The notes under the pieces: generated by a model | Databases searched by the model: none | Seen by the model: the letters and a program-made list of their open reading frames with translations, nothing else | Told to the model about the DNA's origin: nothing | In this document: positions 8,825 to 55,028 of the stretch, piece by piece | Position numbering within the stretch: position 1 is the stretch's first letter | How the letters are laid out: the number at the start of each line of letters is the position of its first letter | Position numbers and translations under genes: made by a program | NCBI GenBank assembly: GCA_030536555.1 | Contig: JAUNPU010000001.1 | Span: 107,814-171,813 of the forward strand | DNA from: Eubacteriales bacterium | Lineage (GTDB): Bacteria > Bacillota > Clostridia > Lachnospirales > Lachnospiraceae | Reading direction: 5' to 3' | DNA: 64,000 nucleotides

Positions 8825-10753
8825 ATGAAAGACGGATTTTTCCGCGTGGCGGCAGCGACGCCGAAGATAAAGGTAGCAGACCCGGTCTACAACCGGGAGC
8901 AGATCTGTGAGATGATCGAGGAAGGAACAAGGCTTGGGGTGGGCATGATGGTATTCCCGGAGCTGTCTCTGACGGCATACACCTGCGGCGATCTGTTCCT
9001 GCATTTTCCGCTGATCCGCAGGGCGAAGGAGGAGCTGAAAAAGATCGTGGAGTTCACGGCAGGACGGCAGATGCTGGTGTTTGTGGGGCTTCCCTGGGAG
9101 CACGGTGGCAAGCTGTACAATGTGGCGGCTGTGATCTGCAACGGGCAGCTGCTGGGTGTGGTTCCCAAGACCAACCTTCCCAATTACTCGGAATTCTATG
9201 AGCAGAGACACTTTACACCAGCTATGGAGTTCCAGGCGGAGACAGACTGGTTCGGCAGCAGGGTCATCATGGGAACGAATCTTCTGTTTGCCTGTCGGGA
9301 GATCCCGGAGCTGGTGGTGGCAGCGGAGATTTGTGAGGACGCATGGGTTCCGTGCCCGCCAAGTATCCGCCATGCCCTTGCCGGCGCGACGGTGATCGCC
9401 AACTGCTCTGCCAGCGACGAGGTGGTGGGAAAGGATACCTACCGCAGATCCCTGATTGGCGGACAGTCGGCGCGGCTGGTCTGCGGCTATGTCTATGCCA
9501 ATGCCGGGGAGGGAGAGTCCACCCAGGATCTGGTATTTGGCGGACACAATCTGATTGCGGAGAATGGAACCCTGCTGGCAGAGGCGAAGCGGTTCCATCC
9601 GGGAATGATCTGCGCTGATATGGATCTGGAGCGGCTTTGCAGCGAGCGCAGGCGGACTACCACCTATCCGGCACAGGATGACGGAATCTATCTGACCATT
9701 GATTTTTCCTTAAATACAGAAGCCATGGAAAAAGAGCAGGAGAAGAAGCTGCTTCGCTTCATCGACAGCCGCCCGTTCGTGCCCCAGGCGAAGGAGGAGC
9801 GCAGCAGACGGTGTGAGGAGATTTTCACCATTCAGGCGATGGGACTGAAGAAGCGTCTGGAGCACACCGGCACCCGGCATGTGGTGCTTGGAATCTCCGG
9901 CGGTCTGGACTCCACGCTGGCACTTTTGGTGGCGGCGAGAGCCTTTGATCTGCTGGATATTCCGAGACAGCAGATTCATGCAATCACCATGCCCTGCTTC
10001 GGCACCACCGACCGTACCTATCAGAATGCCTGCACCATGACCAGAAAGCTGGGGGCGACCCTGACCGAGGTGGATATCAAAGCATCCGTGATGCAGCATT
10101 TTTCGGATATCGGACACGATCCGTCCGTACACGATGTGACCTATGAGAACAGTCAGGCACGGGAGCGGACCCAGGTGCTGATGGATATTGCCAACCAGGT
10201 GGGCGGTCTGGTGATCGGTACCGGCGACATGTCGGAGCTGGCGCTGGGCTGGGCTACCTACAATGGTGACCACATGTCCATGTACGGCGTCAATGCCTCT
10301 GTGCCGAAGACCCTGGTGCGCCATCTGGTGCATTATTATGCGGATACCTGCGGAGAGCAGGAGCTTGAGGCGGTGCTGATGGATGTGCTGGATACGCCGG
10401 TCAGCCCGGAGCTTCTGCCGCCGGAGGACGGGGTGATCGCACAGAAAACTGAGGACCTGGTGGGACCCTACGAGCTGCATGATTTCTACCTGTACTATGT
10501 GCTGCGGTACGGCTATATGCCGTCCAAGATCTACCGTTTGGCACTGAGGGCATTTGCAGGAGAATATGAGGCAGAGACCATTGCAAAGTGGCTGAATGTA
10601 TTCTACCGCCGGTTCTTTGCACAGCAGTTCAAGCGCTCCTGTCTCCCGGACGGCCCGAAGGTGGGCTCTGTGGCAGTATCGCCCCGCGGTGACCTTAGGA
10701 TGCCCAGTGATGCGGCTAGACGGATCTGGATGGACGATCTGGAAAAGCTGTAA
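8825..10753 (+). CDS. nadE: Glutamine-dependent NAD+ synthetase
   Basis: 642 aa. N-terminal CN-hydrolase domain ([16 protein letters not shown]) plus a C-terminal NAD synthetase domain with the SGGLDS PP-loop. Confidence 0.9.
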
Positions 10754-46960: not shown

Positions 46961-47857
46961 ATGAACGGGAATCCGATACAGTGGCATCCGGGATTTCAGT
47001 CAGCCTTGCAGGTGGAGCTGCAGGATGACAGCAGTTATCTGACATTTGAGAAGGAGCGGAACCTTACGCAGAAGCCCTTGCAGATTGACACAGTGATTAT
47101 CAAGAAGGAAGGACATCAGGTCAGCAAGAGTATTGGCAGGTTTTTCAGAAAGTACAATATTGTCGAATATAAGAGTCCCGATGATTATGTGAGCATCAAT
47201 GTGTTTTACAAGGTATTGGCATATGCATGTCTGTATCAGTCCGAGACAGAGCATGTCAATGAGATTGATCCGAGGGAACTGACGATTACGCTGGTATGCA
47301 GTCATTTCCCAAGAGAATTGATGAAGCATTTGTATGAGATGTTTGGGACAGAGGCAGAAGAGGTGGATGCAGGAATCTATCATCTGACGAAGGTGCCGTT
47401 TCCGGTTCAGCTTATTATCATCCCGAAGCTGTCGCGGGAAGAGTATGTGTGGATGAGCCGGCTGCGATATGATTTGACGGTGAAGGAAGATATTGAACCG
47501 TTATTGAAAGCGTATCGCAGTCATGACCACAGTCCGTTATATCAGTCTGTAATGAATCTGATTGTGAGAGCAAATAAAGATGAATATGAGGAGGCGAAAG
47601 GGATGTGCGATGCGTTGATGGAATTGTTTGCAGATGAGTTGAGGGAGAAAGGACAGAGTGCGTGGCTGGAGGGTCAGATGGATACTCTGATAACAATGGT
47701 GCGAAGAAAGTATGAGAAGGGACTGAGTACGGCAGAGACCGCAGACTGCCTGGAGGTGGCGGTATCCGTGATAGAAGATGTCTATGAGCAGCTTCGCCGG
47801 AATCCGGACGCAGACAATGCTGAGATTTGTAAACAGTTGAAAGCAGTGAATATCTGA
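46961..47857 (+). CDS. PD-(D/E)XK nuclease-family putative transposase (Rpn/YhgA-like)
   Basis: D...IVEYKSP core motif and a C-terminal helical region typical of Rpn-like proteins in Firmicutes. Confidence 0.6.
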   Translation: MNGNPIQWHPGFQSALQVELQDDSSYLTFEKERNLTQKPLQIDTVIIKKEGHQVSKSIGRFFRKYNIVEYKSPDDYVSINVFYKVLAYACLYQSETEHVNEIDPRELTITLVCSHFPRELMKHLYEMFGTEAEEVDAGIYHLTKVPFPVQLIIIPKLSREEYVWMSRLRYDLTVKEDIEPLLKAYRSHDHSPLYQSVMNLIVRANKDEYEEAKGMCDALMELFADELREKGQSAWLEGQMDTLITMVRRKYEKGLSTAETADCLEVAVSVIEDVYEQLRRNPDADNAEICKQLKAVNI

Positions 47858-47914: not shown

Positions 47915-47943
47915 TTGACGGCTTCTGTAAGAACCCTTATAAT
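47915..47943 (+). promoter_or_regulatory. Host promoter immediately upstream of attL (pre-insertion promoter of the pfk leader)
   Basis: TTGACG (47915-47920), 17 nt spacer, TATAAT (47938-47943). Confidence 0.5.
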
Positions 47944-47954
47944 AGCGTTAGGTG

Positions 47955-48009
47955 CAAAAAAACCGGTCCCGAAGCACTGACTGCGACGGAACCGATTAAA
48001 AAGGGGAGG
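47955..48009. repeat. attL direct repeat
   Basis: c-a7-ccggtcccgaagcactgActgcGacggaaccgattaaaaaggggagg. It is 45/47 identical to 54884-54930 and has one extra A in the A-run. Confidence 0.85.
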
Positions 48010-48178
48010 TTATTGTAATGACCATTTTAGGCGGTTTATACCCGTTTAAAGTGGTCTTATTGTTATTCAATTATATTTTTTGGAATTTATTTTGATTTAT
48101 ATTAGTGTAATAATTTGGTGTAAATATTGGTGTATAGAATATTGAAAAATAGATGTATTACCATTTTTCAGAATTGTA

Positions 48179-48406
48179 TTATTTGTAATTATCATTTCTT
48201 GGATATGGATTAGGCGTATCTGTTAATCCAGCAAGATAATCCATACTGGTATCTAATGCCACTGCTATTCTTTTGCATTGTTCAAATGTATAATACCGTT
48301 TTCCACTTTCAATTTTTGAATAATCACTTTGGTCAATTCCTGTTAGAAGTTGCATTTTAACTTGTGTATATCCTTTAGATTTTCGCAATTCCTTTAATCG
48401 TGACAT
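48179..48406 (-). CDS. XRE-family HTH transcriptional regulator (element repressor candidate)
   Basis: LKELRKSKGYTQ....TGI.QS.YSKIE.G HTH_3 pattern. Divergent from the element's rightward genes. Confidence 0.85.
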   Translation of the reverse strand: MSRLKELRKSKGYTQVKMQLLTGIDQSDYSKIESGKRYYTFEQCKRIAVALDTSMDYLAGLTDTPNPYPRNDNYK

Positions 48407-48464
48407 GACTCATCTCCTTCATAATTATATTTTTTGCATAGTTCGATTATGTCATACTGACCTA

Positions 48465-48493
48465 TTGACAATAGGGTGAAATTGACCTAAAAT
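48465..48493 (+). promoter_or_regulatory. Rightward element promoter with overlapping 15-bp palindrome (operator candidate)
   Basis: TTGACA (48465-48470), 17 nt spacer, TAAAAT (48488-48493). The palindrome CCTATTG-A-CAATAGG (48461-48475) overlaps the -35. Confidence 0.55.
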
Positions 48494-48522
48494 GAGAATA
48501 TTACAAGAAGGAGGTAACAAAT

Positions 48523-48690
48523 ATGGGACGAAAATCAAATAAATCCAGTGATGGATACAATTCTGGTATTTACTATTATGAAGATGAACCTGATGAGAGG
48601 GATTGTCCAGATTGCAACGGTACTGGATATGACCCATTGGATGGTGGACAATGTGATAGGTGCAACGGTACCGGAGTTATTGACCGATAG
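48523..48690 (+). CDS. 55-aa protein with two DnaJ-type CxxCxGxG zinc-finger motifs
   Basis: My own translation gives MGRKSNKSSDGYNSGIYYYEDEPDERDCPDCNGTGYDPLDGGQCDRCNGTGVIDR. RBS gaaggagg lies 8 nt upstream. Below the 60-aa track cutoff. Confidence 0.55.
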   Translation: MGRKSNKSSDGYNSGIYYYEDEPDERDCPDCNGTGYDPLDGGQCDRCNGTGVIDR

Positions 48691-48742
48691 TAGCAAGGTG
48701 ACCCATTTTATGTCACAAAATTAACTGTGGGAGGAAAAAGGG

Positions 48743-48895
48743 ATGAGTAAAGAAATACGAAAGCCGGAAGAATTTGAAAGAAAAGCGAGAATACCATCAC
48801 CATATACTGACAATGAAAATGAAAGGACATGGTTGCCTAAAATCGGTACTGATGATAAACGAATGAAAGATTTGGAAAAAATAAGAACGTATTGA
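48743..48895 (+). CDS. Hypothetical 50-aa protein
   Basis: My own translation gives MSKEIRKPEEFERKARIPSPYTDNENERTWLPKIGTDDKRMKDLEKIRTY. RBS gggaggaaaaaggg lies upstream. No recognisable family. Confidence 0.4.
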   Translation: MSKEIRKPEEFERKARIPSPYTDNENERTWLPKIGTDDKRMKDLEKIRTY

Positions 48896-48912
48896 TTCTA
48901 GGAGATTTTACA

Positions 48913-49164
48913 ATGGGACTATTTAGTAGATTGTTTGAGTCATTGAAAAACATAGATTCGAGAGATGTGGAACGTGTTGCTAATGACTTATACGATGTAG
49001 TGGAAAAGAAAACGGATGAGGCTAGAAGAAAAGCTGAAAAGCAAGCAGCATCTCAGTTAAGACAAAAATCTGATGACCAGTTGAGCCGTGGATATGAAAA
49101 AAATAAAGATAATCCAGTGGCTGAAAAACTTATACGCCAAGAAATGGAACGTAGAAAAAAGTAA
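48913..49164 (+). CDS. Hypothetical 83-aa charged/helical protein
   Basis: ATG at 48913 (MGLFSRLF) follows aggag. Lys/Glu-rich. No recognisable family. Confidence 0.5.
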   Translation: MGLFSRLFESLKNIDSRDVERVANDLYDVVEKKTDEARRKAEKQAASQLRQKSDDQLSRGYEKNKDNPVAEKLIRQEMERRKK

Positions 49165-49299
49165 ATATTTTTGGTTAAATAATATAACTGTAAGAATAAG
49201 ACAAAGGAGGTTAAGACCATGAATAGAGTTATTCTTGCGGTTATATTAAAAGCACTGTTAGAAATCATTGATGTCATTACGAATGGCGATTGAGTATCT

Positions 49300-49337
49300 T
49301 GACTTCCAGATAGTTAAACTATCTGGGAGTCTTTTTT
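49300..49337 (+). terminator. Intrinsic terminator ending the early small-gene transcript
   Basis: Stem cttccagatagtt/aactatctgggag followed by tctttttttc. Confidence 0.7.
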
Positions 49338-49512
49338 TCTTTAAGTAAAATTACAGATTCCACATGGTAAAAGAATTTTTCTATCAGAGATTCTATAGAA
49401 TTCCATGGAATCTTATAAAGAAAAAAAGAAATTTACAATATGGAACTAGAATAAGTATATTTATAGTGTATAATAATAGTTAATAGATTAATTTATACGG
49501 GGAGGAGATGCC

Positions 49513-50763
49513 ATGAGAAAATATGGCGACTTATTATCGGAAGTTTCCATTGATAAGAATTTTGAAAAACAACTCAAAAATTTTGTTAAGCCTAATTCAG
49601 ATTTTAAAGCTGTATGGGAGCAGATTTGTATGCTAGAGAGCCAATATCAGAGTGTGCCACCATACGGGATGGATAATGAACTCAAAATTGATTTTATGGA
49701 AAATATTGTGAAAGAAACACTATTTGATGATAGTCCTAATCCATATACAACTCTATGCGATAAGTTGATACGAGATGATAAAAATGCTTTCAAGCTAATA
49801 TTGTATCCATATGCCAATAGAATATCTTTACTACAAAGCGATATAAAGATGTGTTTAAAATATAATTATGACTTTGATTGCAGACAGAAAAAAGCAGGAC
49901 TCAATCGTTCAAATGATATTTTAGAGTTAACAAGGGAAAAGGAATATTATTTACCGTTTGCGTTGTTGGAAAATCAGTATGATGATTTTTGCTCATATAC
50001 ATGGCATAGTTTATTCCAAGACAGCGATGCAATAGCTTGCTTTAGTGTCGGAGATGGGAAATACTTTAATGCTCAAATATTTCCTAGAATTATAAAATCT
50101 TTGACATATGATAATAATGAATGTCCAGTTACAAATGATGACCGTTGGCTAATAGAAAAAATTTTTGGTGTGAATACGGTATTATCTTTAATGCCAGTAA
50201 TGGAAAAATCTTATGACGATAATACTTTTAAAAATGTTATAAGTCCGATTTTGGATATACTTTTAAGTTGCAAGCCAATACATATACGAACGACTTTAGC
50301 GGAGTTAATGAGTGATGTGTTGTGTGAAATGACCACAGCAAGTAAAAATTCACCATATGGTTTAAATGTAAATGATTTATATGATAAGAATGAGATTAAG
50401 AACCTATTAGATGAATTAAATGCTACAGTTTCAAAAATCAATATAATATATATTACAATATTAAATACCTTATATGATGCAAAGGTGAAATTAGAACCCC
50501 TTGTCATGGAAATAATATTAGCAAAGGATAATAGTTCCTGTTTTGTTGAAGCTGACTTACCACAACTCTCTTTTGGAAATGATGCCAAAATAGTGACCCC
50601 AGTGATTTTACTTGATATTACTAATAAAATCGAAACAATAAATAAGTTATTGACAACTTACCAAAAAAGGAATTATAATAAAGGGGATTTAGCATATAGA
50701 TATGGTTGTATACAATATCACGCAATAAGTTTTATTTATAAAGAAATGGAAAAGTTGAAATAG
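49513..50763 (+). CDS. Orphan 416-aa protein, no recognisable domain (element cargo gene)
   Basis: Strong RBS ggggaggag 7 nt before the ATG. Soluble, Asn/Lys/Asp-rich, very AT-rich coding sequence. It lies between a terminator upstream and a ~140-bp gap downstream. Confidence 0.7.
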   Translation: MRKYGDLLSEVSIDKNFEKQLKNFVKPNSDFKAVWEQICMLESQYQSVPPYGMDNELKIDFMENIVKETLFDDSPNPYTTLCDKLIRDDKNAFKLILYPYANRISLLQSDIKMCLKYNYDFDCRQKKAGLNRSNDILELTREKEYYLPFALLENQYDDFCSYTWHSLFQDSDAIACFSVGDGKYFNAQIFPRIIKSLTYDNNECPVTNDDRWLIEKIFGVNTVLSLMPVMEKSYDDNTFKNVISPILDILLSCKPIHIRTTLAELMSDVLCEMTTASKNSPYGLNVNDLYDKNEIKNLLDELNATVSKINIIYITILNTLYDAKVKLEPLVMEIILAKDNSSCFVEADLPQLSFGNDAKIVTPVILLDITNKIETINKLLTTYQKRNYNKGDLAYRYGCIQYHAISFIYKEMEKLK

Positions 50764-50905
50764 AATAGTAATTCCAAGGAACTGTTTGCTTAAAAAGCAA
50801 CAGTTCCTTTTTTGTCGCAATTTGCGACATAAGCCGTTTTCTCAATAATATGCCATAATGTATCTGTAACCGAGAATAACTCATTATAAACGGAGGAGAT
50901 ACGAT

Positions 50906-52567
50906 ATGTCTAAGCAAACAAGTAGTGCTATGTATGATGGAAACGGTTCCCAGAATGGTAGTTTCAGGGATATTATTACTTTTACGGATGGTAGCCCCAT
51001 AGATGCCATTACCTTTATGGCTGGTGTTCCTGCGGAAATCAGTGGTTCAAAACCGAGTATGCAACTAACTAATAAGCCTATAGAGCCAGTTCTCGATAAT
51101 ATGATAGTTGTTACTCCTACAGAGCAACAAACGGCATTAGAAGCCATTCCAGCGGTTGTAGAAGCCATTCCTGCGGTTGTAAAAGCCACTTTACCAGAAG
51201 CACCTCTCACAGATGCTAGAATCCATATGCCGATACCGCTGGACAAAGAATTGTTTAAAAAATCCGAGGTTGTTGAAGTAGTGGAAGAAAAGAGAAACAT
51301 GGTAAGTGTACGTTTATACAAAAAATTATTAAATGAATATAAGTTGCGAGTATACTGTGGTGATGTTTATCTGTTTGATGAAGTGCATGGTATATATAGG
51401 AAGCTATCTACAGACGATTTAAACTATCTCATTAATTTGCATTTTAGAGAGATTATCGAAAAGTGCGGCTTATATTTGTACGATGAAATTTTAATGCACC
51501 TTAAAGTGAATTATGAAATAGCTGTGCAAGAAGCTGATTTTCAGCCATTACAATACTGGGGATTTCAAAATGGTTTTTGTGATATTTATAAAGGAACTTG
51601 TATTGTAAATGACGGGCGTTATTTTGTACGAAACGTTTTAACGTGCGATTATCATTCAAAGGCAATCTGCCCTACTTTTGATAAGTTTCTTAACTCCATT
51701 GCCTGTGGTGATAATAGAATTATTAATCTTATCTGGGAGACGATAGGGTATTTGTTTTCTAACGATACAAACGCTAAACGATTTTTTGCATTTATTGGAT
51801 GCAAGAACTCCGGTAAGAGCCTGTTGGCACGAGTTATTACCAATATAATTGGTAATGATGCTACTACTCATTTAAGTCCAAGTGATTTTGCTGGTAGATT
51901 TAGCCTTAGTGGACTTAATGGAAAGAAGCTAAATACTTGCATGGATTTGCCAAACCGTGCTTTATCACCAGAAGTCCAAGCGATAATAAAGGAGATGACA
52001 GGAAATGATATTATGTACTCAGATGTGAAATACAAAGATGCAATTAGTTTTAAACCTACAGCTAGGTTGCTGTTTGGTTCTAACTATTTAATCAAAACGC
52101 AAGAATACGATTCGGCATTTGAAGAACGCTTAATTGTAATTCCGTTCCGTTACTCCATTCCAAGAGCTGAACAGGATTTTGATTTAGAACGGAAATTGCT
52201 GTTAGAGAAAGAAGGGATTTGTTTAAAAGCAATGCAGTATTATAAGGCATTGATATACAAGCGGTATCATTTTACCGACGTTGACTTATCCAGAGAGTTA
52301 GAAAACAATATAGATGATAATAAGGTTATAGAGTATTTTGCAAATGAGTGTTGCGAGTTTACTGATTCGAAATCCGATAAAGTGTTTTCCACGACATTGT
52401 ATGAAGCATATAGAGATTATTGCCATTCTAAGGATTTAGAGCCATTAAAAAATCCTGAGTTTTCCAGAAAATTTAATGATAAATTTTCCGGTAGAGTAAT
52501 AAAAAAGAAAATTAACATCAATGGCGAGTGTTTAAATGGCTTTGTATATCTTAAATTAAAACAATAA
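50906..52567 (+). CDS. Phage/plasmid primase-NTPase, P4/D5 family (C-terminal SF3-type NTPase domain)
   Basis: D5_N-like central region and Walker A GCKNSGKS, followed by hydrophobic-D/E and FGSNY motifs typical of P4-family primase C-terminal domains. The N-terminal ~130 aa are low-complexity. Confidence 0.75.
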   Translation: MSKQTSSAMYDGNGSQNGSFRDIITFTDGSPIDAITFMAGVPAEISGSKPSMQLTNKPIEPVLDNMIVVTPTEQQTALEAIPAVVEAIPAVVKATLPEAPLTDARIHMPIPLDKELFKKSEVVEVVEEKRNMVSVRLYKKLLNEYKLRVYCGDVYLFDEVHGIYRKLSTDDLNYLINLHFREIIEKCGLYLYDEILMHLKVNYEIAVQEADFQPLQYWGFQNGFCDIYKGTCIVNDGRYFVRNVLTCDYHSKAICPTFDKFLNSIACGDNRIINLIWETIGYLFSNDTNAKRFFAFIGCKNSGKSLLARVITNIIGNDATTHLSPSDFAGRFSLSGLNGKKLNTCMDLPNRALSPEVQAIIKEMTGNDIMYSDVKYKDAISFKPTARLLFGSNYLIKTQEYDSAFEERLIVIPFRYSIPRAEQDFDLERKLLLEKEGICLKAMQYYKALIYKRYHFTDVDLSRELENNIDDNKVIEYFANECCEFTDSKSDKVFSTTLYEAYRDYCHSKDLEPLKNPEFSRKFNDKFSGRVIKKKININGECLNGFVYLKLKQ

Positions 52568-52589
52568 TTGACAGCGTGGAGGATATGTA

Positions 52590-52790
52590 ATGGAGAAAGA
52601 GTATGTACCGCTTAATTGTAAGAGATTATTGAGTATGAGCGATTTTCAAAAATATGCCAGTATCGGAAGAAACAATGCGTTTAAGCTTGTAAAACGAGCG
52701 GGATGTGAAATCCGGATAGGGAATCGAGTATATGCCGATCGAGTAGCTTTTGATGAATGGTGTTCATCTCAAACAATAAATAAAATATAA
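52590..52790 (+). CDS. Excisionase-family/MerR-like small DNA-binding protein
   Basis: 66 aa. LSMSDFQKYASIGRNNAFKLVK....IRIGNRVY.DR.AFDEW pattern typical of the excisionase-family HTH. Directly upstream of the integrase. Confidence 0.65.
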   Translation: MEKEYVPLNCKRLLSMSDFQKYASIGRNNAFKLVKRAGCEIRIGNRVYADRVAFDEWCSSQTINKI

Positions 52791-52853
52791 ATCTAAACCA
52801 TGGGAGAAGGTGCAAACCTTCTCCCACATATTTAATTTAAAGGGGGTATTATT

Positions 52854-54017
52854 GTGGTTGATACAAAAGAAAAGAAATTGCCAAAAGGTATTACACTACG
52901 GTCAGACGGTTACTATATGGGACGTTTTACCTATTATGGAGAGCGATATACACTTTATGATAAAGATTTGAAAATATTGAAGAAAAAACTAGAAGATTTG
53001 CGTTATGAACTGGAACATGGATTGTATGCAAAAGAATCAGTAATAACCATTGATGACTGGTTTCATACGTGGATAGAAGAATATAAGAAACCGACTGTCA
53101 AACAAGGAACGGTAGGAGTATATCAAGACAATTATGATTCTTATATCAAGAAACCATTTGGTAAGAAAAAACTGAAAGATTTGCGTCCAGAGCAAATTCA
53201 AAACTTATACAATACACTTAATAAAGAGGGTTACTCAAGAAATACGATAGAGTTAGTGTCTGTTGTGTTGAGTGGTATGTATAAGCAAGCATACAAAAAT
53301 CAGTTAATTCAGAAGAATCCGGTGCCGCTTGCTACTCTTCCAAAAATGACAGAGAGAAAAGAACGTAGGGTATTGTCGAAGGAAGAACAGGAAATATTTA
53401 TGGAATCGGCTAAAAATCATCAGTATTATTATACCTTTGAATTAGCGCTTTCAACTGGTATGCGTAGTGGCGAAATAAGAGGATTAGAGTGGCAAGATAT
53501 TGACTTTTCAAATAGGATTATTCATGTACGTGGCACGCTAGTACAGAATCGTTATGGTTTTTATAAGGATTTGCCGAAAACACAAAGTAGTTATAGAGAT
53601 ATTCCGATGCTGGATAATGTCTATACATTGTTGAAGCAACGAAAAAAGTGCCAATCGGAGCAGAAACTTTTATTGGGAAACGAGTGGAAGCCATTGAAAG
53701 GATTAGAAAATTTGATTGTTACTACTAATACAGGACACCCTGTAGGAAAAGGATATTTGAATAATGCAATTAATAGAATTACGCTTAAGATACAAAAAGA
53801 ATATCCAGAGTTTGAGGAACTGTCAATTCATACTATGCGACATACGTTTGCAACACGATGCATCGAGAATGGAATGGAGCCACAAGTGCTAAAAGCAATA
53901 CTGGGACATTCTAAACTTTCAATGACAATGGATTTATATGCACATGTGCTTCCAGATACAAAGTCAAAGGAGATTCAAAAGATTGCGAATCTGTTTCGGT
54001 CAGAATATGTGTCTTGA
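52854..54017 (+). CDS. int: Tyrosine-type site-specific integrase
   Basis: N-terminal SAM-like domain, a catalytic domain with R (GMRSGEIRGL), HxxR (HTMRHTFAT) and LGHS....T.D.YAH containing the Tyr nucleophile. GTG start follows aaggggg. Confidence 0.9.
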   Translation: MVDTKEKKLPKGITLRSDGYYMGRFTYYGERYTLYDKDLKILKKKLEDLRYELEHGLYAKESVITIDDWFHTWIEEYKKPTVKQGTVGVYQDNYDSYIKKPFGKKKLKDLRPEQIQNLYNTLNKEGYSRNTIELVSVVLSGMYKQAYKNQLIQKNPVPLATLPKMTERKERRVLSKEEQEIFMESAKNHQYYYTFELALSTGMRSGEIRGLEWQDIDFSNRIIHVRGTLVQNRYGFYKDLPKTQSSYRDIPMLDNVYTLLKQRKKCQSEQKLLLGNEWKPLKGLENLIVTTNTGHPVGKGYLNNAINRITLKIQKEYPEFEELSIHTMRHTFATRCIENGMEPQVLKAILGHSKLSMTMDLYAHVLPDTKSKEIQKIANLFRSEYVS

Positions 54018-54057
54018 GCATTATATTATTCCAATATAGCAAAGAAATTATGATTTG

Positions 54058-54103
54058 GTGAAAAAAGACCTATTTGCTGTGTGATTCTGAGCAAGTAGGT
54101 CTT
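54058..54103 (-). terminator. Intrinsic terminator of the minus-strand XRE gene (also separates it from int)
   Basis: 14-bp stem aagacctatttgct/agcaagtaggtctt (one G-U pair) with a tttttt run on the minus strand. Confidence 0.65.
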
Positions 54104-54302
54104 AATCCTTGTAATGTGTTGCAATATCTTCAATTTTACAATCTAATATATTGCATAATGTGTTAATTGAGTTCATACTGATGCCCTCATTATTTCTCAG
54201 CCTATGCAAAAGAGATTTACTGATATGATATTTCGAGGTCAAGGTATATTGTGTAACTCCCTTTTCTTTCATGGTTTCCCATAATTTGTCATATTTAATC
54301 AT
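54102..54302 (-). CDS. XRE/Cro-type HTH regulator (second, right-end copy)
   Basis: 66 aa. KEKGVTQYTL.....ISKS.L.RL pattern of the HTH_26/HTH_3 type. Confidence 0.75.
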   Translation of the reverse strand: MIKYDKLWETMKEKGVTQYTLTSKYHISKSLLHRLRNNEGISMNSINTLCNILDCKIEDIATHYKD

Positions 54303-54399
54303 TAATCTTACCTTTGTATATTGTTATAGTTTGATTTTACATCTATACTAAGTATGTACAAAGGTTCTGTTTTCAGACCCTCAGAGAGGAGACGATATT

Positions 54400-54732
54400 T
54401 TGAAGAGTTATATATTGCGGTTTGGAGTGCTTTTTTTGCTGGGAGTATTTATAGGATGGAATTATCCAGAGCGTAGTGTTGAAAAACGAGATTTTGAAAT
54501 TATTCATAGCTATTCATATGTAGGTGGAGGATATAAAACAACTACACTGAGTGTAATTGTAAATATAGAGGACTATGATACAGGAGAAATGTTGGAACGT
54601 GTGAAAAAATATCATTATGAAAGAAATAGTGTTTCTAATGAATTAACAATCAAATTGTATGATGGAAGAAGCGCATTTGAAAATCATAGATGCAGAATTG
54701 AAAGAACTTATATAAGTGATAGGGGGGATTAA
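54400..54732 (+). CDS. Hypothetical 110-aa protein with N-terminal TM/signal anchor
   Basis: TTG start follows gagaggaga. N-terminal hydrophobic segment ILRFGVLFLLGVFIGW. No recognisable family. Confidence 0.45.
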   Translation: MKSYILRFGVLFLLGVFIGWNYPERSVEKRDFEIIHSYSYVGGGYKTTTLSVIVNIEDYDTGEMLERVKKYHYERNSVSNELTIKLYDGRSAFENHRCRIERTYISDRGD

Positions 54733-54752
54733 TACATAATACGAGGATGCGG

Positions 54753-54781
54753 TTGACGGTATCTAAAAGAACATTTATAAT
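54753..54781 (+). promoter_or_regulatory. Element-borne outward-facing promoter resembling the host promoter at 47915-47943
   Basis: TTGACG, 17 nt spacer, TATAAT. The 30-bp block 54752-54781 is 24/30 identical to 47914-47943. Confidence 0.5.
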
Positions 54782-54875
54782 GATTTTGTAATAAAAATGG
54801 TGTATTATTGGTGTATAACTTAATTTCGCTATAATCTATCTATGACATGAGTGGAGCGAAACCTACGGTTTTACA

Positions 54876-54930
54876 ACAAAAAACCGGTCCCGAAGCACTG
54901 TCTGCAACGGAACCGATTAAAAAGGGGAGG
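54876..54930. repeat. attR direct repeat
   Basis: c-a6-ccggtcccgaagcactgTctgcAacggaaccgattaaaaaggggagg. See attL. Confidence 0.85.
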
Positions 54931-55028
54931 ATAAGTATTTCTTTTTTCTTTGGTACTACTCTCATTATCTCCTTCCTGTTCCAGATTATACACTGCACGG
55001 AAAATATTTTAAAATTAAAGGAGCGCAT

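Follow-up and report, generated by a model that had tools for sequence, protein, structure and literature searches.

The PICMIs (phage-inducible chromosomal minimalist islands) of the Vibrionaceae are about 6-7 kb long and have a core of a tyrosine integrase, a small helix-turn-helix (HTH) excision regulator and a DUF5906-type replication protein, with a variable accessory slot beside the attachment (att) site and without capsid-remodelling or packaging genes; they lie downstream of fis, which is a defining trait, they carry AlpA, and their induction and packaging by virulent phages have been shown experimentally (PMC10803314). The published model for them consists of an integrase (PF00589, PF00239 or PF07508), DUF3987 (PF13148) or DUF5906 (PF19263), and AlpA (PF05930) or PF12728 (PMC10803314). 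The phage-inducible chromosomal islands (PICIs) of Gram-positive bacteria, among them the Staphylococcus aureus pathogenicity islands (SaPIs), and the StCIs of Streptococcus thermophilus combine int, a divergent repressor, xis and pri/rep genes with a helper-dependent life style (PMC10085698, PMC13376191); SaPIs also have terS and capsid-morphogenesis genes and place int beside the repressor, whereas StCIs are without recognised structural genes (PMC13376191). Tycheposons of Prochlorococcus have tyrosine recombinase, excisionase and primase/helicase hallmark genes, integrate in the 3' part of a structured RNA gene (a tRNA or tmRNA) that is partly duplicated, and occur as modular PICI-like and cargo variants that share integration and replication modules (bioRxiv 10.1101/2020.12.28.424599). 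Here we describe an integrative element that can be set beside each of these systems. It occupies positions 47957-54930 of a 64,000-nt stretch of a Lachnospiraceae genome (assembly GCA_030536555.1, contig JAUNPU010000001.1; the full stretch is called the window below, and coordinates are those of the window unless another contig is named), is 6.97 kb long and has all of its open reading frames (ORFs) intact. We put at roughly 80% the probability that it is an intact helper-dependent integrative replicon, a member of a small Lachnospiraceae family, inserted in a small RNA gene upstream of the glycolytic gene pfk.

The element resembles PICMIs in its size, its core genes, its want of capsid-remodelling and packaging genes and its variable slot beside att, and two of the markers of the PICMI model, the integrase (PF00589) and DUF5906 (PF19263), are present in it. 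Unlike PICMIs it has a small RNA target, a Firmicute host, a Tn916-like excisionase (Xis) and an extra all-alpha core protein. The AlpA markers PF05930 and PF12728 are both without a match in its Xis, and three of the six members of that Xis family match PF12728 weakly (best 3.8e-4). It shares int, a divergent repressor, xis and a replication gene with the PICIs, but int and xis lie at the far end of a rightward operon, a Tn916-like layout, and there are no terS or hijack genes such as those of SaPIs. Tycheposons differ from it in having tRNA or tmRNA targets, a distinct integrase clade and marine cyanobacterial hosts, where the element described here uses a regulatory-type small RNA in gut Firmicutes.

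The block is a genuine, site-specifically integrated element, and it is intact: it has the complete integrase, the flanking repeats with a crossover core and the unoccupied sites in relatives that are characteristic of tyrosine-recombinase elements. A repeat search returned a direct repeat at 47957-48012 and 54878-54933 (56 nt, 53/56 identical), of which the biologically meaningful part is 47957-48009 and 54878-54930 (53 nt, 51/53 identical), the right end being set at GGGGAGG by comparison with sister elements; both mismatches fall in the central, loop-proximal part of a hairpin. GC content is about 0.50 in the flanks (0.46-0.55) and about 0.32 in the interior (0.28-0.40). An earlier, sequence-only reading of this DNA had placed repeats of about 54 bp at 47955-48009 and 54876-54930 around a sharp drop in composition. 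Both observations hold, the repeats starting 2 nt later and ending at the same position, as does the gene order that it gave, which agrees exactly with the list of ORFs. That reading recognised the integrated element and missed the nature of the repeats, namely the 3' end of a small RNA gene. No tRNA or tmRNA that might have served as the target is present in the window.

The direct repeat and the junctions of two related elements described below (L002 and L128) allow the two att sites to be assigned. The left copy, attL (47957-48009, plus strand), would represent the small RNA gene's original 3' end, displaced by the insertion, and consists of an A-run, a hairpin at about 47963-47994 and the core TTAAAAAGGGGAGG at 47996-48009; the right copy, attR (54878-54930, plus strand), would be the element-borne version of that 3' end, with a hairpin at about 54884-54915 and the core at 54917-54930, fused to the body of the host RNA gene. 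The junctions of L002 share with those of the window the core TTAAAAAGGGGAGG and the sequence rightward of it, ATAAGTATT, and the core AAAAGGGGAGG is common to three independent insertions. The attP junction inferred for the element reads ...CGGAACCGATTAAAAAGGGGAGG|TTATTGTAATGACC..., and the reconstructed empty attB reads ...GCGACGGAACCGATTAAAAAGGGGAGG|ATAAGTATTTC.... The hairpin of the P arm terminates in CGGAACCGA in the window element, L002 and L128. Host-side and element-side hairpins are unrelated in L002 and L128, whereas those of the window are 51/53 identical; either attP may derive from this host lineage, or the host terminator may earlier have been swapped for an element-borne one.

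A scan for pfk in species-representative genomes placed the host in the Lachnospiraceae (best pfk match 89% identical), with Ventrimonas, Brotaphodocola, Lacrimispora and Hungatella among its relatives. In four related species (L134, L136, L137 and L140; pfk 78-84% identical) the conserved motif lies 113-144 nt upstream of the pfk ATG, compared with 112 nt in the window, and no homolog of the integrase, of the D5-type helicase or of the 416-aa core protein occurs within 10 kb. The reconstructed empty site of the window aligns over its full length with the sites of these four Lachnospiraceae species, which supply the unoccupied site that the sequence-only reading had proposed to look for.

The repeats are, as far as can be read from the DNA, the duplicated 3' end (C-rich box and terminator) of a predicted small RNA gene of about 100 nt on the minus strand, since a conserved box, terminator hairpins and a strand asymmetry together define a small gene. 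A shared 23-mer, which occurs once in the window (0 expected from shuffles), was found in more than 120 metagenome contigs, mostly from the human gut, and in 4 IMG/VR contigs; the set of loci considered here comprises L004-L123, L134-L160 and window 54872-54978. In front of each 23-mer stand an A-run and a hairpin whose sequence varies, and behind it lie about 50-60 nt of semi-conserved sequence that ends in a TATA-like box. Read on the minus strand, this becomes a -10-like box, a body of about 45 nt, the invariant AAUACUUAUCCUCCCCUUUUUAA, a hairpin and a U-run. The -10-like box, NG[TA]ATANN, is present in 70/83 loci, mostly 50-57 nt upstream of the 23-mer, and per-sequence folding found a hairpin directly after the motif in all of the unique loci (88/88; median -24.8 kcal/mol, z -6.3), comprising 50 distinct hairpin sequences. 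In 47 of these 50 the minus strand is the more stable (mean -23.2 vs -15.4 kcal/mol), with 119 G.U pairs against 4 (p = 1.5e-9), and because the wobble pairs are so strongly asymmetric the predicted gene can be assigned to the minus strand, a point that we regard as settled. The locus has the hallmarks of a small RNA gene with a Rho-independent terminator: a conserved block, a hairpin conserved in structure and not in sequence, a U-run and strand asymmetry.

In the window, the predicted RNA gene (54872-54978, minus strand) consists of a host-derived 5' body, the invariant AAUACUUAUCCUCCCCUUUUUAA and a terminator supplied by the element. A promoter scan gave a -10 box TATAAT at 54985-54990 and a -35 box TTTAAA at 55008-55013 on the same strand, from which the 5' end is deduced. 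The attR copy would therefore be the one that completes the RNA gene (approximately 54978 to 54872, minus), and the attL copy its displaced original end. No known RNA family accounts for the att region: no Rfam covariance model, including RsaE/RoxS, matches the window region at E <= 1, and seven other loci gave unrelated sub-threshold matches only. We also asked whether the conserved stretch to the right of the core might be coding (a uORF), and rejected this: orthologs have offsets of 8, 9, 10 and 11 nt before the conserved block, their lengths do not differ by multiples of three, and many loci do not lie beside pfk. The stretch is thus read as non-coding. The RNA gene is divergent from pfk in the window, and elsewhere it lies co-directionally upstream of pfk, or downstream of pfk. 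The occurrence of all three arrangements indicates that linkage of the two genes does not depend on orientation. We note that two loci (L157 and L158) have two tandem copies of the RNA gene downstream of pfk, and that some variants of the RNA have a second C-rich hairpin loop (UUGGACUCCCCCUCCAAUU).

The predicted RNA resembles the C-rich, Shine-Dalgarno-pairing small RNAs of Firmicutes. RsaE/RoxS, a C-rich (UCCC) small RNA, is likewise about 100 nt long, ends in a Rho-independent terminator, has a conserved C-rich box complementary to the Shine-Dalgarno sequence and is genetically linked to central carbon metabolism (PMC2790875). Unlike RsaE, with which it shares neither sequence nor a covariance-model match (nor with any other Rfam family), the window RNA has a C-rich box that may be partly paired with a purine-rich 5' segment. 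Integration into RNA genes is itself familiar. At tRNA, tmRNA and small RNA genes, including ryeB and ryeE of enterobacteria (PMC3603311) and the 4.5S RNA gene ffs (PMC12540744), attP bears the 3' end of the RNA so that the gene stays intact, and sites of this kind are hotspots common to several unrelated elements. The site described here differs in that the target RNA is not in Rfam and in that the elements also bear a look-alike of the displaced pfk promoter. In a few contigs, four from IMG/VR (L124-L127) and L078, the RNA gene is represented by its 3' part alone (hairpin, 23-mer and AATTA), which adjoins unrelated sequence, the arrangement to be expected of att junctions or of the attP of other elements; the proteins encoded to the right of the motif in L124 include Ku-like, DNA-ligase-like, and XRE plus ImmA-type ones.

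The crossover lies to the right of the hairpin, and integration therefore carries both the terminator of the RNA and the promoter of pfk over to the element's far side. The promoter scan found the displaced host promoter, TTGACG-N17-TATAAT, at 47915-47943 (plus strand), directed toward pfk and now cut off from it by the element. A promoter is conserved at the equivalent position in the empty sites of six relatives (L134, L136, L137, L140, L150 and L151), just left of the hairpin and pointing at pfk on the plus strand (TTGCAx-N17-GATAAAAT). The right arm of the element appears to bring, along with a substitute terminator hairpin, a look-alike of this promoter: an outward TTGACG-N17-TATAAT at 54753-54781 (plus strand) whose region shares 24/30 positions with that of the displaced host promoter, a score reached by 0/2000 shuffles. 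L002 has TTGACA-N17-GATAAT at the corresponding place of its right arm, and in an independent lineage the sister elements L004 and L122 have GCAAACCCTTATAAAATAAGG, to be compared with GCAAACCCTGATAAAATAAGG in the host promoter of L137. We infer that the element-borne copies of terminator and promoter restore expression.

Three further elements share with that of the window the gene order, the att core, the arm repeats and the cluster of heptads described below. L002 has the same genes in the same order and is located between other host genes. L128 is a complete third member from another host, in which attL consists of a host-specific hairpin and AAAAGGGGAGG, and attR of the element hairpin, the core and the RNA body, with a divergent pfk; the fourth member, L131, is partial. 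Precise att junctions are seen in three different hosts. Identity to the window proteins is 84-85% for the integrase (L002, L128 and L131), 88-89% for the XRE protein (L002 and L128), 67-70% for Xis, 48-52% for the D5-type protein and 32-40% for the 416-aa protein, and the zinc-ribbon protein of L131 is 78% identical. The order common to the family is XRE repressor, zinc-ribbon and small ORFs, all-alpha core protein, D5-type helicase of superfamily 3 (SF3), Tn916-like Xis and tyrosine integrase. Another contig, L092, resembles window-type right arms to the left of the motif (1-229; GAAACCC..GATTTTA..AAAAAAA and a ...CCGAAACCGA hairpin) with a convergent pfk adjoining, and on account of this right-arm-like sequence it is probably another occupied site of the family. 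Sister elements (L029, L004, L122 and L111) have att at the same RNA 3' end, integrases that are 49-63% identical, and arm repeats of their own (TTTTGTATCA x2, TTTTGTGTCA x2 and AGTTGGGGCAA x2).

The integrase (387 aa, GTG start, 52854-54017, plus strand) matches PF00589 (1.2e-26), PF14659 (2e-13) and phrog_1 (1e-78). The 66-aa protein encoded upstream of it (52590-52790, plus) is Tn916-Xis/HTH_17-like: taken alone it has weak matches only, but a profile of six family members finds the Tn916 excisionase (1y6u) as its best PDB match, near full length (E = 0.006), and PF09035 and HTH_17 are matched by 4/6 and 3/6 members, respectively. A pair of GGTGTA direct repeats in the P arm (54799-54815, plus; TGGTGTA with 11-nt spacing) and two to three TGGTGTA copies with a 12-13-nt period in the P' arm (48098-48134, plus) are candidate arm-type binding sites for an Int of the lambda/Tn916 type. 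In all family members such repeats share one orientation and number two in the right arm against two or three in the left, the right-arm pair being seen in L002, L128 and L131; sister integrative and mobilizable elements (IMEs) have their own repeat pairs at that position. At the left end, the XRE/Cro-C1-type repressor (75 aa, 48179-48406, minus; PF01381 3e-12, phrog_8 3e-13) adjoins the palindrome CCTATTGACAATAGG at 48461-48475, which overlaps the -35 box of a rightward promoter found by promoter scan (TTGACA-N17-TAAAAT, 48465-48493, plus). A similar sequence is found in L002, and the two are a candidate operator and early promoter.

The putative replication module consists of two genes. The 553-aa D5/P4-type NTPase (50906-52567, plus) combines D5_N, an SF3 helicase with the Walker A motif GKS and a Pox_D5 winged helix, and matches DUF5906 (PF19263, E = 1.5e-14, above the gathering score), Pox_D5 and TIGR01613 'primase_Cterm' (2.7e-46). 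All D5-type hidden Markov model (HMM) matches are confined to residues ~135-545, the helicase and C-terminal region, and in an alignment of 15 homologs conservation begins at about residue 97, the N-terminal ~100 aa being variable; a 21-nt tandem repeat at 51138-51188 (2.4 copies, 93% match) in this variable part translates as a repeated EAIPAVV peptide. A P4-type primase catalytic domain at the N terminus is not detectable, so that, given the coverage of the matches and the unconserved N terminus, we describe the protein as D5_N, SF3 helicase and winged helix without a detectable primase domain. Directly upstream lies the gene for a 416-aa all-alpha core protein (49513-50763, plus). A word-indexed search found a single homolog of it, in L002, and an exhaustive HMM search extended the family to 27 members, none with a Pfam domain. 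The AlphaFold model is confident and all-alpha (pLDDT 80, pTM 0.86) and has no structural neighbour in PDB or BFVD (best E > 0.2, TM < 0.2), and with no Pfam domain in any member we reject the idea that this protein is the missing primase. In all four close elements its gene is directly upstream of the D5 gene, and in distant IMG/VR relatives (L174-L177) it is directly upstream of a helicase of superfamily 2 (SF2; ResIII/DEAD/Helicase_C), after which come Tn916-Xis and int, and recombination genes of the phage type (Sak and YqaJ) lie in the vicinity. The pairing with a helicase persists despite the replacement of SF3 by SF2, and this gene neighbourhood suggests that the protein is a replication-associated helicase partner, for example a loader or initiator. 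In the 28%-GC intergenic region upstream of the 416-aa gene, RRTTCYA heptads in both orientations form a cluster (49356-49447; 6 sites, 17 per kb vs 1.7 per kb elsewhere in the element) whose layout is conserved in L002, L128 and L131, with a density 10-19-fold above that of the rest of the element; it is a candidate iteron-type origin or operator array.

Searches with HMMs, which the sequence-only reading had proposed, bear out its integrase and the D5/P4-type NTPase, together with its two XRE/HTH regulators (PF01381 3e-12 and PF13443 6e-16). Its xis-like gene gains moderate support from the family profile and the PF09035 matches. What it called a "P4/D5 primase" is a D5/P4-type NTPase in which no primase domain was detected, and the 416-aa "orphan" has turned out to be a conserved core gene and not cargo. 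As it had noted, there are no structural or packaging genes, no capsid, tail, terminase or relaxase match being found in Pfam, PHROGs, NCBIfam or PADLOC. Its suggestion of possible anti-phage cargo found no support, PADLOC returning generic HTH matches and no defence system.

We propose the following scheme for the element. The integrase would recombine within AAAAGGGGAGG, in the C-rich box of the small RNA gene divergent from pfk, and integration would split the locus, the terminator of the RNA and the promoter of pfk coming to lie at attL, 7 kb away. The terminator hairpin of the right arm would complete the RNA gene, and the outward promoter would be positioned to drive pfk. The XRE protein presumably represses the rightward operon through the palindromic operator; Int, together with Xis and the TGGTGTA arm sites, would excise a circle; and the circle could then replicate from the iteron-like origin by means of the D5 helicase and its all-alpha partner. 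Because the element is without transfer genes it would depend on a helper, which could be either a phage, making the element satellite-like, or a conjugative element.

It is possible, though we think the odds are against it, that the element is a true phage satellite, in which a helper phage would lift XRE repression and excision and D5 replication would be followed by packaging as a monomer or concatemer, with an unknown small protein or the all-alpha protein as a factor that might hijack the phage. The combination of int, xis, a divergent repressor and DUF5906/D5 in 7 kb without structural genes has this logic, and PICMIs, 6-kb elements in which int, alpA and prim are the sole essential genes, are packaged in concatemeric form (PMC10803314); virulent phages induce the similar StCIs of S. 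thermophilus (PMC13376191). In IMG/VR contigs, distant relatives of the all-alpha protein are found beside phage-type Sak/YqaJ genes, and phage-like contigs bear partial copies of the RNA 3' end, but the IMG/VR label is a prediction and no proof of packaging. A search of IMG/VR with the single D5 sequence gave no hit, and an alignment-based search gave one distant hit (25% identical). In the four members no homolog of terS or of capsid-size, portal or other hijack genes was found in PHROGs or Pfam, and no helper was identified. To count as Type A or B, a PICI needs four or more of five core components, among which are genes for packaging or capsid interference such as terS, and the authors of SatelliteFinder exclude 'Type C' as ambiguous (PMC10085698). 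Judged by this published component list, the element, with only int, a xis/alpA-like gene and pri-rep, is 'Type C' at best. It also lacks the hallmark PICMI location at fis, lying instead in a small RNA gene upstream of pfk, and so falls outside both the PICI and the PICMI definitions. The satellite classification offered by the sequence-only reading is therefore one for which we find no positive evidence. Furthermore, a sister element with a related int/xis/att module is a relaxase-bearing IME.

This sister element, L029, supports a reading that we consider unlikely, namely that the element is mobilizable without a relaxase of its own, in the manner of a cis-mobilizable element (CIME) or IME, and is moved by a co-resident conjugative element via an unrecognised oriT, with D5 serving only to maintain the circle. 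L029 (L029:3047-3777 and L029:4067-5494) encodes an integrase and a Xis that are 49% and 50% identical to those of the window, uses the same att site, and has, in place of the D5 module, a MobA/VirD2 relaxase together with a NikA-like protein and a Mor-like regulator, which shows that the integration module also serves conjugatively mobilised elements. The Xis is Tn916-like, distant D5 elements (L129 and L130) have Tn916-type Xis and Int, and Lachnospiraceae are rich in integrative and conjugative elements. However, no relaxase, coupling protein or recognisable oriT was found in the element with Pfam, PHROGs and NCBIfam, so that it is without the relaxase that an IME encodes, and the place of the relaxase module is taken by a replication module of a sort typical of satellites and plasmids. 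Lastly, that the element is an immobile, decaying remnant of a prophage or larger island is very improbable, for although it has no transfer genes and was met only in integrated form, all of its ORFs are intact, its compact gene set and order recur in four elements (replication genes 32-52% identical, int and XRE 84-89%), the att junctions are precise in three hosts, and the arm repeats and iteron layout are conserved.

Several observations weigh against our preferred reading of an intact helper-dependent replicon that repairs a small RNA locus. Neither an excised circle nor an attP junction nor an isogenic empty site was found; a search for such an empty site by means of exact matches to pfk and the flanking proteins led to one other sample only, in which the site is occupied too. 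The exact element was met only in integrated form, in the source and one other sample, and an exact-match search of species-representative genomes and IMG/VR did not find the attB/attP 24-mer. No primase was identified in the element. The heptad count was reached by 0/2000 shuffles, a statistic that is optimistic because the motif was chosen post hoc, after inspection of the sequence. The right arm of L128 has a -10 box only. Beyond the terminator, the predicted fold of the RNA is only modestly better than that of shuffles, and our claim therefore goes no further than the terminator and the conserved box. With a MAFFT alignment as input, RNAalifold yielded no structure, a null result that we attribute to misalignment of the length-variable hairpins, and it was replaced by per-sequence folding and the test of strand asymmetry described above.

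The remaining genes of the element and its surroundings are less readily interpreted. Downstream of the rightward promoter lie a 55-aa zinc-ribbon protein with two CxxCxGxG motifs of the DnaJ/anti-TRAP type (48523-48690, plus; DnaJ_CXXCXGXG 3e-5, sub-threshold; TIGR02642 and anti-TRAP about 1e-6) and two small ORFs of 50 aa (48743-48895, plus) and 90 aa (48892-49164, plus) without family matches in Pfam, PHROGs or PADLOC. A 20-nt inverted repeat (49180-49199 and 49229-49248, plus; TAATATAACTGTAAGAATAA and TTATTCTTGCGGTTATATTA) encloses the ribosome-binding site and the start of a 24-aa ORF that is missing from the list of ORFs (MNRVILAVILKALLEIIDVITNGD, 49219-49293, plus), downstream of which is a strong terminator-like hairpin with a T-run (49301-49339, plus); the inverted-repeat sequence and a similar mini-ORF are kept in L002 (about 9621-9690). 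Between int and attR are two window-specific genes: an accessory HTH_26 (Cro/C1-type) regulator (54102-54302, minus; PF13443 6e-16), missing from L002 and L128, and a 110-aa membrane protein with a hydrophobic N terminus (54400-54732, plus), an ORFan cargo gene with no family match that found only itself among 5.8 billion proteins. In two distant D5 elements (L129:8692-9481 and L130:4892-5681) the region downstream of the integrase has a nucleotidyltransferase (NTP_transf_2) and HEPN pair, a toxin-antitoxin or defence-like cargo. Immediately left of attL, in a stretch of lower GC (0.43-0.47), the window encodes a 298-aa protein (46961-47857, plus) that has no Pfam, NCBIfam or PHROG match and is 37% identical (E = 1e-46) to one encoded at L129:10251-11156, 2.7 kb downstream of the integrase of a D5/int element. 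Its D...EYK motif may be read as nuclease-like; an Rpn/YhgA transposase or the remnant of an older element was considered and set aside, there being no support in those three databases and no similarity to the Transposase_31 protein of L175. In the same host, an AbiEi/AbiEii (abortive-infection type) pair lies about 9.5 kb downstream of pfk (L001:13555-14987), just past the end of the window.

Small helper-dependent islands are thought to form much of the unexplained mobile DNA of bacteria and are barely described in the Clostridia that dominate the human gut. The family presented here offers a compact, well-delimited model: its att sites are defined, there are candidates for the arm sites, the operator and the origin, and a new conserved protein is paired with the replicative helicase. 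To us the RNA-gene target, its use by several types of element and the replacement parts are of more interest than the satellite label, which is plausible but unproven. We would stop just short of even odds on a wider proposal: that the invariant C-rich 23-mer marks a new and widespread anti-Shine-Dalgarno regulatory RNA of gut Lachnospiraceae, linked to pfk in every orientation; that this RNA gene, much as tRNA genes do, serves as an integration hotspot for three or more kinds of element, namely D5-type replicative islands, relaxase-bearing IMEs and, probably, prophages; that the elements evolved 'spare parts', the RNA terminator and a look-alike pfk promoter, which make their insertion harmless; and that the all-alpha protein represents a new, island-specific family of helicase partners (loaders or initiators). 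The present case would also stretch the rule that elements rebuild their target gene to include the promoter of a neighbouring gene. The small RNA may matter more than the element, being unannotated, invariant over 23 nt across many gut species and located beside a key glycolytic gene; if it is expressed, it would be a candidate post-transcriptional regulator of central metabolism in important commensals.

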